From NCBI RefSeq assembly GCF_053078305.1, contig NZ_CP166879.1: a stretch of 64,000 nucleotides of DNA; one strand, given 5' to 3'. The position numbers and the translations under genes were made by a program. Under the pieces are notes generated by a model. The model saw only the letters and a program-made list of their open reading frames with translations, had not been told where the DNA came from and searched no databases. Numbering within the stretch: position 1 is the stretch's first letter; each line of letters starts with the position of its first letter. Positions 46,805 to 56,516 of the stretch are shown here, one piece after another.

Positions 46805-48106
46805 CGGAAAGGTGGCGGGGGATCCACGGAGATAATATCTGTCTGAAATTGTTTTGAATCGATGGGATTGTTGCGTATTAACATGAAGGAGATCAGGACT
46901 TATCCGTTACTGGGTGATCTCCTTCCATGAAAATACGCAGTTATTGTTAAACAGCAGGCTGATTTCTCCGTAAAGGGGAAAATATTTATCGGCTGCATGA
47001 TTATCAGGTGTGTCTGTGTTTACTGCTGTGAGTATTTTTCAGTGTATTGTGGGGGAGATGTCAGTGGGAGATATTAAATTTACGTTTATAATTATCTTAC
47101 TTCTTCTGTGTGTTTTTTATAAGAGTGCACACGTAATGATATCTGTTGATACCATGTGGTTAAGTGTTTCCCTTCCGGGTCATGCGTACTTGCAAAATGG
47201 CATCTGAATCGATCACGGTTTGGCCAAACCGTGATCGAATAGAGAGGAATACGCACGTAATGATTAAATGCTTTTGTTACACCATTCTTCCGGCATGAAT
47301 ATTTATCCAGTTCCCTTTTTTATTTGTGTAGTGATACTGTCGGAATAGCGTTCAGTAATGTGAAGCGTCCTGTTAAAAATCTTTAATAAATGTGTCACCC
47401 TGGTCAGGAAATATCTGCTGAGATATTATTAGTTGGTGGTGTTTTTACTGAGTAATAGCTGGCTTTTAATTCCTGAACTGAAATACTGTCGCTCGTCAGG
47501 GTTTAATTAAAACTGGATGATGATGTGAAAATGAAGGCTGGTTTTTGTGTTTGTCGAGGAAGTGTTGTTTTTATCCATTCTCATCATTGGCTGGCTGCGA
47601 TTATACAGAAGTATTTGAAGAAAAAATGGTGCATTTTATCTGTGCCGGCAGGGAGGGGGATTTTCCTGATATGTCAGTATTAAATGGTTTTTGTTATTTA
47701 TAAAAATGTCATCCTGTCCATAGAATATTGTACTGAGTACTCAGCATTCAGCGCAGGAACTGTCATCTTCTTTATTTTATTCTTCTTCAGGAGGGCAGTT
47801 TTCTGAAAGCGTTACTCCGGGGAAACTGTTTATGTTTATTCCCGGCAGGAAACCCGTACCTGCAATACCCTGGATGATGCTTTTTGCTGGTACGTTGTTG
47901 TGTGAAAATTAATCAACATGTGTGCTCCGGAGAGCGCCCGTAGACGCACAGATTCATTCTGACATTCTTTAGCGACAAAATATCGATTGGTTATTATTTA
48001 ACCTGAAAATCGACAGAAATTTTTATCCTGTATTGATTCTGATGCTATTTTTGCTATTAGTAGCAATAGTTGCGGTACTTTATGTTCTGTGTGTTGTAAG
48101 GTCATT

Positions 48107-49597
48107 ATGCCATACTTTCAGTATCCTGATGAGTTTCCCCTGAGCTCGCTGCCTCCACTCATTCGTGATGCCGTTATTGAAGCTCAGCAAATCACGCAGG
48201 CTCCCCTGGGGCTTGTGGCAGCATCTGCCCTGGGCGCTGTTTCACTTGTCTGCCAGAATCTGATTGATGTCTGCAGACTGAATACACTGCGGGGGCCGGT
48301 TTCTCTTTTCTTACTGACGCTTGCTGAGTCCGGAGAACGAAAAACCGCAGTGGACAAATTATTAATGGAGCCCCTGTACCAGCAGGAGATGCTGTTATAT
48401 TCCAGACACAAAAATGAACTGACGACATGGAAAAATAAGGAAGAGCTTTTAAAGGCGCAGAAAAAAGCATTGTTGTCAAAACTGAATAAAGAACTCCGCA
48501 AAGGCGCGGATGAGTCAGAAACGCTCAGACAACTGGAAGCGCTTCAGAAAAACAGAGGGGAAAAACCTGTAAGATATAAATTCATTTTTAATGATGCCAC
48601 GACAGCAGCAATTAAAGATCAGCTTTGTGGTCAGTGGCGTTCAGTGGGTATCATGTCTGATGAAGCCGGTATAATATTTGATGGGTATACCCTGTCTGAG
48701 CTGCCTTTTATTAACAAAATGTGGGATGGCTCCGTATTGTCGGTGGACAGAAAGAATGAACCCGAACAGATGATTGAAAATGCCAGAATGACATTATCTC
48801 TCATGGTACAACCCGGTCTTTTTGACCGATATATGGAGCGAAAAGGTTCTGTTGCCAGGGACAGTGGTTTTCTTGCCCGTTGTCTAATCAGTAAACCTGC
48901 CACCACGCAGGGGAAACGCTTTATTAACGGAGCAGTGACCCCGGGAGAATCATTAACGGCATTTCATGAACGATTAATGGAACTGGCCAGAGGCAGTATT
49001 GAAAAATCCAGTAAGGATGAACGTTATTGTCTGCATTTTTCTCCAGAAGCGCAAAAAATATTTATTGATCACTATAATGTTCTGGAGCAGGATTTGTCTC
49101 CTTCCGGACCCTTAAGCCAGTTTCGGGGGCATGTTTCAAAAAAAACAGAAAACATTGCGAGAATTGCTGCGTTATTGCAGTATTTCAGTCAGGGTGAAGG
49201 GAAAATCTCTGCCGATATCATGACGTCTGCTGTCGTAATAAGTTCGTGGTACACAGATGAATATAAAAAATTATTTGCGTTACCTGATGAATCTGAACTG
49301 CAGCTGCAGGACGCCCGGGAGCTGCTCGACTGGCTCATTGAGGAGTGCCGCGGAGAATGCCCGCCCCGTGTCAGGAAAAATTATATTCTCCAGTGTGGCC
49401 CGGGCCGGTTCAGGAACAGGAAAAAGCTGAACGTCCTGCTGAACATTCTTGCATCTCAACTCAGGCTCTCTGTCGTGCAGGAAGGAAAAACCACCTATGT
49501 CCTGCTTTCCGAAATAAACAATATCACGCTGCCTGAACTGAATGCGTGCTACAGCCAGAAACTGATAAGATGGCATGAGCAATCCTTTGGCTTATAA
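48107..49597 (+). CDS. DUF3987-family protein (YfjI-like)
   Basis: About 497 aa from MPYFQYPDEF; recalled similarity to YfjI-type proteins of P4/CP4-57-like elements. Confidence 0.6.
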   Translation: MPYFQYPDEFPLSSLPPLIRDAVIEAQQITQAPLGLVAASALGAVSLVCQNLIDVCRLNTLRGPVSLFLLTLAESGERKTAVDKLLMEPLYQQEMLLYSRHKNELTTWKNKEELLKAQKKALLSKLNKELRKGADESETLRQLEALQKNRGEKPVRYKFIFNDATTAAIKDQLCGQWRSVGIMSDEAGIIFDGYTLSELPFINKMWDGSVLSVDRKNEPEQMIENARMTLSLMVQPGLFDRYMERKGSVARDSGFLARCLISKPATTQGKRFINGAVTPGESLTAFHERLMELARGSIEKSSKDERYCLHFSPEAQKIFIDHYNVLEQDLSPSGPLSQFRGHVSKKTENIARIAALLQYFSQGEGKISADIMTSAVVISSWYTDEYKKLFALPDESELQLQDARELLDWLIEECRGECPPRVRKNYILQCGPGRFRNRKKLNVLLNILASQLRLSVVQEGKTTYVLLSEINNITLPELNACYSQKLIRWHEQSFGL

Positions 49598-50359: not shown

Positions 50360-50620
50360 TTACGGACGGGACTGTGCAATACGCGCCTGCAGCCAGGCTT
50401 CCACTTCGCTTTTCAGCCATCGGGAGCTACGGCCCAGTTTGATGGGGGCAGGAAAGGCACCATCCTTGATGAGCTTGTAAAACCATTTATCGGTCAGGCC
50501 GGTCAGCTGAGTGATAAACGACATGTCGACCATCTGGTCATCCATCAGTGAAACTGGGGTATTCATGAAAATGTTCCTCCGGATGTTGTTAATCTCAACC
50601 AGCGTTGGTGATGAAAACAA
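50360..50620 (-). CDS. alpA: AlpA-family transcriptional regulator
   Basis: 86 aa with helix-turn-helix LTGLTDKWFYKLIKDGAFPAPIKLGRSSRW. Confidence 0.8.
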   Translation of the reverse strand: MFSSPTLVEINNIRRNIFMNTPVSLMDDQMVDMSFITQLTGLTDKWFYKLIKDGAFPAPIKLGRSSRWLKSEVEAWLQARIAQSRP

Positions 50621-50951
50621 CGCACCACCTTCCCCGGCATAACAACCGGGGAAAAACGTAAAAAATGAGTAGGGGAATATTCCTGCCAGGAGAGAAACTG
50701 TTGTGTACAGGCAATACAGGTTGTCTGTTTTGTCAGTGAAGCCGGTATAAACGGAAGATGATTTTGTGTTGCCGGAATATGGGATGGCGTTTTGCCGTGA
50801 CGGGATCAGTATTTTCAGTGATGATTATTACTGCACAGGGGAGTATCGGAGATAAACCACGCCCTGTACCTGCCAGAGCGGTGGTTTGTATTTACTGAAC
50901 GGAAGATAAAGCAGAGGTAAACACTGTCGCGGTGAAGGTAGAAGGCTGAAA

Positions 50952-51743
50952 TTATTCTCTGTAATTACAAACAACAGTGATCTTATCCGGTTTTTTTACC
51001 GTTACGGGTTTCAGAGGGTCAATTTTATATACAGGGGTAATGAGCACGCCGGAATTTATGGAAAAAAGAGGGACCCAGCAATAAACGTCCGGATATTTCT
51101 GTGTCTCCGGAATACCTTTTGCGCCAGAGACCATCAGATCTGTAACGCTCACAAAAAATGACTGCCGCAAATCAAAAAAGTACTCGTTATATATCACATC
51201 CTTTGCCAGCAGGATGACGGCATTACCAACAGCCGCTTTTACAGGTATTTTATCAGATGGATTATCGTGATTGTATATTGTTCTTTCGATATAAATAAAA
51301 CAGGCATATTTCGTCTTCTCCCCGGATAGCTGCATCTGGTATTCGCAAATGTCTTTGATACACCGACTTTCAACCCTTCCAATCATCTTATCCCGGCGAT
51401 AGTGTCTTTTATGTTTCAGCGCGTACAGAACACCATTTGAACTGTCAAACTCCAGGATTCTTCTGGTGAAAAGTTTGTTTTCCCAGATTTCCAGACAATA
51501 CTTCTCTGCACTGACGACATTGCGTTTGCGAGGAAGATCCCGTTGATACACTCCATTTAATAAGCGTGACTGCAGTTCGCCTGCAAGTTGATAATAACAG
51601 TTAATATCGTTAAGGACAGGTGCTGTGGCGCTGAGTAATGCGTTGATTACCTTAGAGCGCGAAAGTTTGTGGGTATGACAGTACTCATCCACAATTCGCA
51701 GCGTCTCATCACTGGTCATATTGAAAGTTATACGTGTTGTCAT
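50952..51743 (-). CDS. hypothetical protein with ribbon-helix-helix-like N-terminus
   Basis: 263-aa ORF in an AT-rich segment; N-terminus RITFNMTSDETLRIVDEYCHTHKLSRSKVINALL has a strand-helix-helix pattern; rest unrecognised. Confidence 0.5.
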   Translation of the reverse strand: MTTRITFNMTSDETLRIVDEYCHTHKLSRSKVINALLSATAPVLNDINCYYQLAGELQSRLLNGVYQRDLPRKRNVVSAEKYCLEIWENKLFTRRILEFDSSNGVLYALKHKRHYRRDKMIGRVESRCIKDICEYQMQLSGEKTKYACFIYIERTIYNHDNPSDKIPVKAAVGNAVILLAKDVIYNEYFFDLRQSFFVSVTDLMVSGAKGIPETQKYPDVYCWVPLFSINSGVLITPVYKIDPLKPVTVKKPDKITVVCNYRE

Positions 51744-52068
51744 GATGATGTTTTCTGTTAATCATACGGGTTGATATGCATAACATTTCATAAAAAATAC
51801 TTTTAATTCATATAATTGATTTTTTGACTGGTTTTATCCTCGTGTGGTGGAAAGCAGTATTACTGCCACTGTAGCCAGCATAAATCTATCACACAGAACC
51901 ACCGAAAATGAAGCATTGCTCAGGGGAACACTCATACGAGTTCTCTGAACTGTGATAACCAGTATTTTTCGTTTTGGATGATTTGTTTATCGTTACAGCT
52001 ACAGGTAGTTCATGTACCATTAAAAAATAATTAAGGTTAATTAGTATTATTTATAGAAGTATGTTTAT

Positions 52069-52300
52069 GTAACTCTACCTTGTAAATGAACTCTGTCATT
52101 GTACCTTGTAATTCTATCCTGTAATTCTACCTCGTAAATACACCTTGTAACCAGGTCCTGCAGAAGTCTGTCTCATAGAAGTATCTGTGCAGCGATATTC
52201 TCTGTAGTACTTGTAACACTGTCCTTAACCCTCTCTGCTGCAATGTAATCCCGTAACACCTGAATATAAATCTGTAATGTACACACTGACTGTAACGTAC
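52069..52300. repeat. iteron-like array of short direct repeats (GTAAYTCTAYC / CCTYGTAA cores)
   Basis: CCTTGTAA-type cores at 52077, 52104, 52118, 52130 and 52143 with 12-14-bp spacing; further TGTAA/GTAAC motifs to about 52300. Confidence 0.6.
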
Positions 52301-52995: not shown

Positions 52996-53595
52996 ATGAA
53001 GACTTACAACGCCAATCCCGGTTACGAAATGGATCCCCAGCTCCTGACACACTTTAATCAGCATCTGGATTCATTATTCGGGGTCTATTCGAAGCTGTTA
53101 CCGTTCAGAATGGATTTTGCTTACCGAAAAAACACATTCAGCTACGGATGCGCCTGCAGGTACGCCATGTGCGCGGAGATGCTGCAACTGATTAACGAGG
53201 TGGGAGAGAAACTGGTCGGGTATGCCTGGGTGATGGAATATACAGAACGTAAAGGGCTTCACATTCATTTTGTGGGCTATCTGAACGGTCAGATCCACAG
53301 GAGTTCGTATCTGGTATCCAGATTGATGGGAGATATCTGGAGGCGGGTTACCGGGGGGGATGGTTACTACCACTGGTGCCGGTTTAATAAAAATTATCCG
53401 GTAAACATTAATCACGTCATTCACTATTCAGACCACAAAGCGGTGAATGCTTTACGCTATGCCATTAGCTACCTTGCCAAACGAGAACAGAAAGAATGTG
53501 GCATCGTTCTTGGTTGCAGCAGGCTTCCTGAAAAAAGTCACCGGGGGCGACCGCGACTGGACAGCACCCTGCCGGGGATATGTTCTCAGGTATAA
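52996..53595 (+). CDS. YfjJ/YagK-family protein (inovirus Gp2-like)
   Basis: 199-aa ORF with GAGGA ribosome-binding site; family assigned by recollection. Confidence 0.5.
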   Translation: MKTYNANPGYEMDPQLLTHFNQHLDSLFGVYSKLLPFRMDFAYRKNTFSYGCACRYAMCAEMLQLINEVGEKLVGYAWVMEYTERKGLHIHFVGYLNGQIHRSSYLVSRLMGDIWRRVTGGDGYYHWCRFNKNYPVNINHVIHYSDHKAVNALRYAISYLAKREQKECGIVLGCSRLPEKSHRGRPRLDSTLPGICSQV

Positions 53596-53970: not shown

Positions 53971-54360
53971 ATGACGATGTACGCAAAATCTTTTCTCGCA
54001 TTCGATGGCAACGGATGCCTGACCGTTGCCCGTACTGCACAGACAGCGCCTTACGATCGATACACCTGTCACCTTTGCGGCAGTGCGCTCAGATACCACC
54101 CGCAATGCGATACCGAACGTCCCTGGTTTGAACACACTGGCGAAGGGCTGGCTGAGCACGGTCATGAGTGCCCTTATGTCAGACCGGAGCGCAGAGAAAT
54201 ACTGTTGATTAAACGCTTACAGCAATGGGTACCGGATGCCTTACCCGTGGTGCGTAAAGCCAGCTGGCACTGCAGACAATGCCAGCACGATTATTATGGG
54301 GAGCGGTACTGCACACACTGTCATACAGGGCGTTTCAGTGAGGAGGCAGTGGCAGGATGA
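53971..54360 (+). CDS. Cys-rich zinc-ribbon-like protein, paralog A
   Basis: 129 aa; CHLC...WFEH...WHCRQC...CTHCHTG pattern; stop overlaps start of paralog B (ATGA). Confidence 0.5.
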   Translation: MTMYAKSFLAFDGNGCLTVARTAQTAPYDRYTCHLCGSALRYHPQCDTERPWFEHTGEGLAEHGHECPYVRPERREILLIKRLQQWVPDALPVVRKASWHCRQCQHDYYGERYCTHCHTGRFSEEAVAG

Positions 54361-54782
54361 ACGGTCTAAAAACGGGGCTGGGGATGACGCCGGGTGAGCA
54401 CATTATCAGTGCCGATTCTGCGCTCAGCAGAAATATCAGGCATTGTTTCTGCCTTTCCTGTCGTGGTCGGTTGATTTTGCAGACAGATGCTCAGGGGGCG
54501 TGGTTTGAGCATGATTTACATGCCCTGAGCGAGCAACAGAAGGCGGCCTGTGTGGTGCTGAATCCGGAAAAATCCCATCCTTACATTGATGATATGGCGA
54601 TGTTTTTATCGCCATTACCGGTCGTACTGGAGTGGCATTGTGTGATGTGTGAGCAGTTTTTTCATGGGAAGAAATTCTGTGAGGCCTGTGGTACGGGGAT
54701 TTATTGCAGAGCAACATGTACGAAGTCTGTTTACAGCTACCAGCCAGATTTGTACCAGGACTGCGGAGGTGCGAGTACTTAA
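54357..54782 (+). CDS. Cys-rich zinc-ribbon-like protein, paralog B
   Basis: 141 aa; same CxxC...WFEH...WHCxxC...CxxCGTG pattern as paralog A. Confidence 0.5.
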   Translation: MNGLKTGLGMTPGEHIISADSALSRNIRHCFCLSCRGRLILQTDAQGAWFEHDLHALSEQQKAACVVLNPEKSHPYIDDMAMFLSPLPVVLEWHCVMCEQFFHGKKFCEACGTGIYCRATCTKSVYSYQPDLYQDCGGAST

Positions 54783-55253: not shown

Positions 55254-55820
55254 ATGTATACAGAATCAAACGTTAAGCTTTCCTGTAACGCCCTCTGGCA
55301 AAAGTGTGTCCTTGCAACTCTGTATCGGGCTGCAGCCACACATCCTGAAATTAAATTATTACAATTTAAATTAATACCTTGCCCTGGTATTAATAAGGCC
55401 ATTCCCTCTCTGATGGCTGATTTTACTGGTGAACTGCATAGACTCATTTCTGAATATTTGCAGTGCAAGCGACGTAAAGATAAATCTGTTGAGCCCACCC
55501 CTTTATATTATCTCTGGAGTAGGGAGGCTGTGGCTAACGGTACCACTCCTTATCTTATGGTGCTGCTACTTAATAATGATGTCTGGTGTAAGAGTCGTGA
55601 GGTGGTGGTTCTCAGAAATCTGATTGAGCAGGCGTGGGGAAAAGTATTGGGTGAAGATAACTCCATTACACATCTGGTTGTGTATCCTGAAGTGCTGTCG
55701 TTGGTATTTGATGCAGCTAACACATACAACGCTGAGCCTGGTGTACTGGAACAGACAGCCCGGGCTTACATTGAATCGCATGGTGCTGTTGAACGTTATC
55801 TTGGGTGTAGTGACTTTTAA
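55254..55820 (+). CDS. hypothetical protein
   Basis: 188-aa ORF in the decayed P4-like region; no recognised motif. Confidence 0.4.
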   Translation: MYTESNVKLSCNALWQKCVLATLYRAAATHPEIKLLQFKLIPCPGINKAIPSLMADFTGELHRLISEYLQCKRRKDKSVEPTPLYYLWSREAVANGTTPYLMVLLLNNDVWCKSREVVVLRNLIEQAWGKVLGEDNSITHLVVYPEVLSLVFDAANTYNAEPGVLEQTARAYIESHGAVERYLGCSDF

Positions 55821-56207
55821 CGTCAGGTGACGCATTGTCACTTCTGACCTGCTACCTGTACGCCGGAATATAATGGTCAGAGAGGCATATTTCGACGCCC
55901 CTAATCTGGGGCGTTTGATTCTGGATGTCTGGAACAATCCGGGCTTTGTGTCACCGGGCGCATCAAAGCAGTACCACCCGGGATGTGGCGCTGGATCGTC
56001 ATTTACCGGACTGCGAAGACATACTTAAAGAGGTGATATGGGCGTTCAGTGATTTTGTCCGCGATAATCGTGGTGTGTATGATCCGGAAGCCCGTTACCC
56101 CGCCGGTAATACCTGGTATCCCGTAACAGGCCAGTTCTGAAAGCACAGCTCAGCAGATTCCCCGCATTCGCACAATCTTCATAAATCTCACAGAGGACAT
56201 TCTGACC

Positions 56208-56516
56208 ATGTTGACTACAACAAGCCACGACAGCGTATTTCTGCGTGCCGATAATTCCCTGATTGACATGAACTATATCACCAGTTTCACCGGTATGACC
56301 GACAGAGGGTTTTATAAGCTGATCAGTGAAGATTCATCAAGCCGGGCCGATCCAGCCGCAGGTATAAAAGCGAAGTGTCACAGTAGATACAGTAACGAAT
56401 CGAAGAATCACGGGGGCAGAAGTATGAAACGTGTTGTGATACCGGTACGCTGGCAATGTTCAACGTGTCAGCGCTGGTATTGTGGCGCTGTTCCCTGGTG
56501 CTGGTCCCCCCCGTGA
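56208..56516 (+). pseudogene. AlpA-like regulator remnant
   Basis: N-terminus DNSLIDMNYITSFTGMTDRGFYKLI parallels AlpA at 50360-50620 (DDQMVDMSFITQLTGLTDKWFYKLI) and then diverges into unrelated sequence. Confidence 0.5.

Follow-up and report, generated by a model that had tools for sequence, protein, structure and literature searches.

CopG, the 45-residue ribbon-helix-helix (RHH) protein of plasmid pMV158, controls the rolling-circle initiator gene repB, and tandem short repeats are typical RHH targets, as for omega and ParR. Stl, the repressor of SaPI/PICI elements, combines a DNA-binding head with a larger C-terminal domain and is encoded divergently from the excision and replication genes of the island. 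For the Shigella SRL island and for tmRNA-integrated islands of Pseudomonas, the literature describes the same integrase/AlpA/Gp2-like core as in the islands considered below, without attributing a function to these core genes. One gene of such islands is yagM (b0279) of the cryptic prophage CP4-6 in Escherichia coli K-12, which is listed among the uncharacterised y-ome genes (PMC11551758) and whose transcript has been measured in K-12 by RT-qPCR (PMC5811629). Literature searches found no functional study of YagM, UCP007319, or PF27701.

Here we describe a yagM-like gene in a 64,000-nucleotide stretch of contig NZ_CP166879.1 (hereafter the window). Its product carries a predicted RHH domain at the N-terminus, and a conserved 30-bp inverted repeat, the candidate operator, lies directly upstream of its start codon.

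A YagM-family gene between alpA-like and yfjJ-like genes

The gene and its immediate surroundings comprise the following features.

50952–51743, minus strand: coding sequence of a 263-residue YagM-family (PF27701/UCP007319) protein (open reading frame list, BLASTP, dN/dS)
50360–50620, minus strand: AlpA-like gene of the excisionase-family helix-turn-helix (HTH) type, syntenic partner (TIGR01764 excisionase domain, E = 2.7e-4)
52996–53595, plus strand: YagK/YfjJ-type (inovirus Gp2-like) gene, divergent from the YagM-like gene, syntenic partner (PGAP annotation of the L001 ortholog, synteny, motif)
50860–50880, minus strand: terminator-like hairpin, 72 nt past the stop codon of the YagM-like gene (pattern scan; 7-bp stem with five G-C pairs, T-rich tail)

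The reading frame begins with ATG and encodes a protein with the N-terminus MTTRITFNMTSDETLRIVDEYCHTHKLSRSKVINALL, as the first-pass annotation had described. The same annotation placed the gene in an AT-rich stretch between alpA and a YfjJ-like gene, and both statements hold. GC content is 0.40–0.42 over the gene and 0.35–0.39 in the non-coding stretch of 1.25 kb (1252 bp) upstream, against 0.50–0.59 further to the left, and both flanking genes were confirmed. However, the gene is not the only one on the minus strand, which 331 bp downstream also carries the AlpA-like gene. The hairpin in this gap is weak evidence of a terminator, as the pattern scan found two such sites where 2.0 are expected by chance.

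DNA of the YagM-like gene was found in 758 of the 5426 complete E. coli genomes (~14%, strains 536 and Nissle 1917 among them), always on the chromosome and annotated as an intact coding sequence. Among these carriers the identity of the gene is mostly 95%–99%, compared with mostly 80%–95% for the adjacent non-coding DNA, and comparison with two E. coli orthologs gave dN/dS values of 0.23–0.30. Intact full-length homologs with 51%–57% identity occur in Citrobacter, Salmonella, and Pectobacterium. The intact E. coli coding sequences, the less conserved flanking DNA, the dN/dS values, and the full-length homologs together establish that this is a real, intact gene under purifying selection.

The gene had been called an orphan, which it is not: its product is a YagM-family protein. 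BLASTP aligned it with K-12 YagM over the full length (residues 5–257 against 40–275) at 25% identity and E = 6e-16, and K-12 YagM aligns throughout in both family alignments (A1 and A2). A precomputed match to PF27701 (UCP007319) is present in 25 of the 25 homologs found, including full-length ones with 93% identity, and PGAP labels some orthologs (95%–97% identical) "YagM family protein". Pfam-A scans of the protein and of all 28 aligned members returned nothing relevant because the Pfam copy that was searched does not include the PF27701 model. The family is small, with 53 clusters at E ≤ 1e-3 when its profile was run against 1.84 billion representative proteins, and its named Foldseek matches come from Enterobacterales and Aeromonas. 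No relatives were detected in a scan of viral contigs or in phage genomes searched by tblastn, and PHROGs gave just one 13-residue chance match. YfjH, which occupies a comparable position in CP4-57, was also considered as a homolog and was ruled out by BLASTP and hhalign.

The N-terminus has a predicted ribbon-helix-helix fold

The protein can be divided into four segments, given here with the corresponding DNA.

51609–51743, minus strand: RHH DNA-binding domain, residues 1–45 (strand ~3–9, helix A 12–25, turn S28-R29-S30, start of helix B)
51549–51608, minus strand: residues 46–65, extension of helix B into a long helix (29–62), probably a dimer or tetramer contact
51510–51548, minus strand: flexible linker, residues 66–78 (pLDDT below 50 at residues 66–76; lowest conservation, 17.5% mean pairwise identity)
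50967–51509, minus strand: family-specific alpha/beta domain of unknown function, residues 79–259

The first ~35 residues had been read as RHH-like, and several lines of evidence bear this out. The NCBIfam RHH model aCcr1 matched residues 5–33 of the protein and of 7 of the 11 other members tested (E = 1.7e-4 to 1.5e-2), but these matches always lay far under the curated cut-off, with 17.8 bits for the protein itself compared with the required 60. CopG was the top match in the profile search of PDB sequences with hmmsearch, at an E-value of only 0.16. When the 28-sequence family profile was aligned with CopG by hhalign, residues 1–38 were placed in register with a probability of 86.7% and E = 4.4e-6. 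AlphaFold2 run on the family alignment (pLDDT 84.2) predicted an extended N-terminal segment followed by a helix at residues 12–25 and a long helix at residues 29–62. Pfam RHH models gave no match to the protein even at E = 10. The N-terminus is thus a predicted RHH fold, and since no curated RHH model passes its threshold, it is assigned to the RHH superfamily rather than to a named RHH family.

Conservation peaks in the RHH segment, with 39% mean pairwise identity against 18%–30% elsewhere. S30 is the sole invariant residue of the family alignment, and S28, R4, and T6 are highly conserved. In the alignment, R4, T6, and N8 correspond to the strand residues through which CopG contacts bases, and S28-x-S30 to the start of helix B, where CopG contacts phosphates.

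A GntR-type winged helix-turn-helix at residues 46–112, proposed by a phmmer match to YvoA (E = 0.06), was rejected. This region coincides in the AlphaFold2 model with parts of the long helix 29–62, the disordered linker 66–76, and the start of the alpha/beta domain.

The C-terminal domain is family specific

Modelled alone, residues 79–259 form a compact alpha/beta domain with a pLDDT of 90.2 and a pTM of 0.85. The profile-HMM and structure-prediction check suggested by the first-pass annotation gave an RHH-type N-terminus and an alpha/beta C-terminal domain without solved relative. The statement that the rest of the protein resembles nothing recognisable also stands, as profile searches of PDB sequences and Pfam found nothing for this domain, and no characterised domain emerged from Foldseek. 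The significant Foldseek matches in AFDB50 are family members and three uncharacterised enterobacterial proteins of 271–314 residues with 11%–12% identity. Conserved positions of the domain are E80, W87, G122, E125, Y151, R154, G173, F190-D191, G207, C222-W223, and P237, among which no catalytic signature could be recognised, and no obvious constellation of His, Lys, or Glu. A confidently predicted domain without a solved relative is a reasonable target for structure determination.

The YagM-like gene belongs to the island backbone

PGAP names the AlpA-like gene "helix-turn-helix transcriptional regulator", and genes matching PF05930 (Phage_AlpA) adjoin other YagM-family members. On the opposite side, the L001 ortholog of the gene at 52996–53595 is annotated by PGAP as "YagK/YfjJ domain-containing protein", and YagK/YfjJ neighbours of the family match PF11726 and PF23343 (REP_ORF2-G2P) and are called "inovirus Gp2" by PGAP. 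The window's own product at 52996–53595 shares with K-12 YfjJ only the short motif YAWVxEYTxxxxxH-x-H and is otherwise very diverged; its H-I-H aligns with H-Y-H of YfjJ and resembles the HUH motif of rolling-circle initiators.

The neighbourhood survey showed that the homologs on islands keep these neighbours, which again speaks against orphan status. All island-type loci that were readable in full have AlpA-family and YagK/YfjJ genes beside the YagM-like gene, i.e., E. coli TB354 and 536, Citrobacter, Pectobacterium, two co-directional loci, a locus with ~20% protein identity, a Salmonella contig, and K-12 CP4-6. One of the co-directional loci is integrated beside smpB, as is CP4-57. Two gene orders were found. 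In the first, which is that of the window and occurs in four lineages, the YagM-like gene is divergent from yfjJ. In the second, the genes are co-directional in the order alpA, yagM, (yagL), yagK; K-12 CP4-6 has the order intF-yagN-ykgV-yagM-yagL-yagK.

In K-12 and in plasmid-type loci, the YagM-like gene has a serine recombinase gene next to it or close by. A distant family member was found on a plasmid-like contig (L017) with a Rep3 initiator and a resolvase. Another is encoded by the 4136-bp Providencia plasmid NZ_CP114799.1 (L018), which has three annotated genes: one for a product with a lipoprotein-like signal sequence by our own reading, the YagM-like gene, and directly downstream of it a serine recombinase gene whose product is 27% identical to K-12 YagL (E = 7e-17). 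Neither L017 nor L018 carries a YfjJ homolog, and Rfam gave no match on L018. In addition, an unannotated reading frame of ~135 residues seems to cross the record start of L018, and the 133-bp gap between its YagM-like and recombinase genes contains GGTATC-type repeats, a possible res site. The yagM-yagL pair is thus present both in K-12 CP4-6 (L003, 7221–8800) and on the unrelated plasmid L018 (1905–3429), which suggests a conserved two-gene module not described before.

The first-pass annotation had also considered that the gene might be cargo. According to this explanation, the product would either act in abortive infection or defence or unite toxin and antitoxin in one chain, with a toxic C-terminal domain under autoregulation by the RHH domain. 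We consider this very improbable. No PADLOC family matched at E ≤ 1, no phage relatives were found, the C-terminal domain lacks an obvious catalytic-looking residue constellation, and hundreds of genomes carry the gene intact without a partner. The adjacent, co-transcribed toxin gene that defines a type II antitoxin was not found: downstream lie the hairpin, the 331-bp gap, and the AlpA-like gene, and the 1.25 kb upstream are non-coding. Moreover, the position of the gene is fixed across genera, as expected of the backbone and not of a variable cargo region. The YagM-like gene is therefore part of the backbone and not cargo.

Elsewhere in the window, the 502-residue reading frame at 48089–49597 is 53% identical to K-12 YfjI (DUF3987) and has no NCBIfam match; it is opposite in strand to the AlpA-like gene, whereas CP4-57 has the order alpA-yfjI-yfjJ. 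Downstream of the yfjJ-like gene, 53971–54782 holds two overlapping, conserved, CxxC-rich reading frames of 129 and 141 residues; in E. coli 536 and TB354, PGAP names them "putative zinc ribbon protein". At 55254–56516 the backbone module occurs a second time, in decayed form. This copy consists of a 188-residue reading frame, probably the "ECs1377 family protein" (PGAP) of strain TB354, and a next reading frame that is similar to the AlpA N-terminus over its first ~40 residues and then goes out of frame. This decayed module suggests tandem or recombined islands. In E. coli 536, an hha gene (L002, 11056–11268) is located between the YagM-like and Gp2-like genes, whereas no hha reading frame occurs there in the window, which marks this intergenic region as a hotspot for small insertions.

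A conserved inverted repeat precedes the start codon

Alignment of the upstream regions from four lineages revealed one conserved block, an inverted repeat, within diverged surroundings.

51756–51785, no strand assigned: 30-bp inverted repeat, candidate operator, 12 nt upstream of the ATG (upstream alignment, matrix scan)

On the gene strand the repeat reads TGTTATGCAT-N10-ATGATTAACA. The arm occurs as TGTTATGCAT or TGTTAATCAT, the spacer is 10–11 bp long, and in L014 and L015 the repeat is perfect. All loci in which the YagM-like gene possesses an upstream region of its own have the repeat 3–12 nt upstream of the start codon, even where protein identity falls to ~20%. A position matrix derived from the arms was scanned over 302 kb and detected a single inverted pair in each locus, invariably at this position (0.1 in shuffled sequence), a result that is circular for the training loci because the matrix was trained on the sites that it later found. 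The only independent test is plasmid L018, which was outside the training set: a single pair of 24.3 bits was found in its 4136 bp, 10 nt upstream of the YagM-like ATG. This plasmid has no annotated AlpA or YfjJ gene, although the exclusion is incomplete owing to the unannotated reading frame across the record start. The repeat is a new finding of this analysis.

The symmetry of the repeat is pronounced, as 77.5% of the cells pair, compared with 29%–49% when the partner is slid. This symmetry is not accompanied by compensatory variation (covariation 0.061 compared with 0.074 in shuffles). An RNA hairpin was rejected because covariation did not exceed that of the shuffles, the central pairs are broken in half of the sequences, and folding z-scores were insignificant at four of five loci. 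Rfam gave no match in the window between 46 and 58 kb. Symmetry without compensatory variation or notable RNA folding points to a protein-binding DNA site, for which the repeat is a candidate, rather than to an RNA hairpin.

Part of the repeat coincides with a -10-like TATGAT, and a TTGAnn hexamer is found ~66 nt upstream of the ATG in several loci. No convincing sigma-70 promoter with a consistent placement across loci was recognised for the YagM-like gene. When the window was searched for further copies of the operator motif, with the TGTAA array described below and the promoter of yfjJ included, weak half-sites were the only matches; they were isolated and no more frequent than background.

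In the loci where yagM directly follows alpA (K-12, L010, L012, and L019), the repeat is missing upstream of yagM, and most of the proteins encoded there retain the R-I-T-F strand. Weak half-site-like sequences (9–11 bits) were seen in L012 (8773–8867), L019 (9204–9244), and L010 (8843), just downstream of the yagM-like stop codon and upstream of the next gene. These statistically weak half-sites may represent a relocated operator.

The position of the repeat also bears on a role in site-specific recombination. The YagM-like protein could be an accessory or directionality factor whose RHH domain binds near att or res sites and shapes the recombination complex of the island's integrase and AlpA or of a YagL-like serine recombinase, and only secondarily a transcription factor. 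The conserved element, however, lies at the gene's own start codon rather than at the end of an island or at a site resembling res, and no integrase gene was found near the YagM-like gene in the window. We regard a recombination factor as unlikely, although it deserves some weight, and it is not mutually exclusive with a role as transcription factor.

The TGTAA array in the shared intergenic region

The region between the YagM-like and yfjJ-like genes also holds a repeat array, which the first-pass annotation had noticed and which is real.

52068–52150, plus strand: 13-bp-period TGTAA array in the shared intergenic region (Tandem Repeats Finder, period 13/26)

Looser copies of TGTAA(C/T) reach ~52300. 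Within the 1252-bp intergenic region, TGTAA occurs 11 times on the plus strand and TTACA twice, and the spaced TGTAA pattern occurs seven times in the window where 1.6 occurrences are expected. Read on the minus strand, the array forms six phased pairs of sigma-70-like -35 and -10 elements directed at the YagM-like gene. The array is present, with variable length, in 745 E. coli genomes. It was seen only in orthologous E. coli loci; the Citrobacter, Pectobacterium, L010, L012, L014, and K-12 loci lack it. The intergenic region is ~870 bp longer in the array-bearing E. coli loci than in Citrobacter or Pectobacterium.

The array is relevant to two further explanations. In the first, the YagM-like protein would be a partner of the Gp2-like (HUH-type) YfjJ protein, either in CopG-like copy control or by binding the origin. 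By occupying the TGTAA array or the promoter of yfjJ, the YagM-like protein would govern how the excised island replicates. The divergent arrangement of yagM-like and yfjJ-like genes over a shared intergenic region in four lineages is consistent with this, as are the match of YfjJ/YagK to REP_ORF2-G2P together with the H-x-H motif, the finding that CopG is the closest RHH protein by profile, and the co-occurrence of array and gene in E. coli (745 and 758 genomes). However, the array does not accompany the family outside E. coli, its unit TGTAA differs from the TGTTA of the conserved arms, and the matrix found no strong sites in it. L017 and L018 carry family members without a YfjJ homolog, and replication of the island is itself putative. 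A functional link between array and YagM-like protein is possible but unsupported, and we give the copy-control explanation only a small chance.

In the second, put forward in the first-pass annotation as "regulator or initiator", the protein would be the replication initiator of the element, with the array as iterons. Its proximity to a repeat array and the distant member on the plasmid-like contig L017 are in favour of this, but NCBIfam and Pfam scans showed no similarity to Rep families, L017 has a separate Rep3 initiator, and the array is not conserved with the family. On L018, a region of ~500 bp, likely the replicon, is common to 323 small plasmids, whereas YagM relatives occur in only 10 plasmid records. 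Provided that this shared region is indeed the replicon, initiation on L018 does not fall to the YagM-like protein. An initiator is therefore scarcely credible, while the regulator half of that earlier proposal is the best reading of the data.

Proposed role of the YagM-like protein

The proposed regulator is an RHH factor that would bind the 30-bp repeat as two dimers and repress its own promoter, with a putative wider control of the mobility module. As drawn from sequence and structure prediction, the chances of this model appear about even to us. Two N-terminal RHH motifs would pair into a dimer whose beta-ribbon reads DNA. The repeat, most likely the operator of this protein, offers two 10-bp arms, ~20 bp apart from centre to centre, and would overlap the core promoter or the transcript start, so that binding would repress the gene itself. 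The long helix and the C-terminal alpha/beta domain would most likely hold two dimers across the arms, receive a signal or partner protein, or both. The wider role would probably be to set expression of the mobility module, since the gene always travels with functions of site-specific recombination and putative rolling-circle functions, i.e., with AlpA, integrase, and Gp2-like YfjJ/YagK, or with a YagL-like serine recombinase.

Several observations argue against autorepression. No Pfam RHH model reaches threshold, and aCcr1 stays at 17.8 of 60 bits. K-12, L010, L012, and L019 lack the upstream repeat, though most of their proteins keep the R-I-T-F strand. An AlpA/HTH_17-type protein is encoded in nearly all loci and could bind the repeat instead. 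Finally, no convincing sigma-70 promoter is apparent, and the C-terminal domain gives no functional clue.

The YagM-like gene is an ordinary, uncharacterised backbone gene of a well-known island type. What is new is the candidate operator, the conserved partnerships with AlpA/YfjJ and with YagL, and a C-terminal domain without structural relative. Relatives of YagM belong to the backbone of P4-integrase/AlpA islands that carry virulence, resistance, and defence cargo. With a predicted DNA-binding domain, a 30-bp candidate operator, and a defined gene partnership, this y-ome family becomes directly testable, which bears on how such islands control their own excision, recombination, or replication.

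Comparison with known systems

The closest relative by homology is K-12 YagM, with which the protein shares full-length similarity and the same two-part architecture. The two genes also share a neighbourhood of integrase, a small upstream gene (ykgV in K-12, AlpA-like elsewhere), and yagK/yfjJ. The subfamily described here, 51%–57% identical across Citrobacter, Salmonella, and Pectobacterium, is divergent from yfjJ and has the 30-bp inverted repeat at its start. In contrast, K-12 yagM follows ykgV co-directionally without the repeat and is itself followed by the resolvase-like yagL. In addition, K-12 YagM has a 35-residue N-terminal extension and the beta-strand HSVTF in place of RITFN.

Compared with the RHH repressors of the CopG/Arc/MetJ superfamily, whose Pfam models fail to reach threshold on this protein, the YagM-like protein is much larger. 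Beyond a CopG-sized head of 45 residues, it adds ~220 residues, comprising a 34-residue helix, a linker, and a 180-residue alpha/beta domain without solved relative. Spaced inverted repeats are also bound by FitA-FitB and by the RHH antitoxins TacA and ParD. There, the bridging domain is a separate toxin protein, whereas in the YagM-like protein it would be covalently attached, and no toxin gene is nearby.

A broader view, to which we assign a slim chance, is that YagM proteins are master switches of CP4/SRL-type islands as well as of the small recombinase cassettes formed by YagM and YagL. With its RHH head on the conserved repeat, such a protein would keep the mobility genes off, and the alpha/beta domain would act as a sensor that frees the DNA when it binds a specific trigger, for example a small molecule or a protein of a helper phage or plasmid. 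Stl of the SaPI/PICI elements, with its DNA-binding head and larger C-terminal domain, offers a functional analogy only. Its head is of the HTH type and that of the YagM-like protein of the RHH type, with no relationship in sequence or fold. Phage-inducibility finds no support for the islands considered here, and the YagM family was not found in the viral contigs and phage genomes searched. If the view is correct, enterobacteria would have in YagM their own counterpart of SaPI Stl, assembled from unrelated parts.
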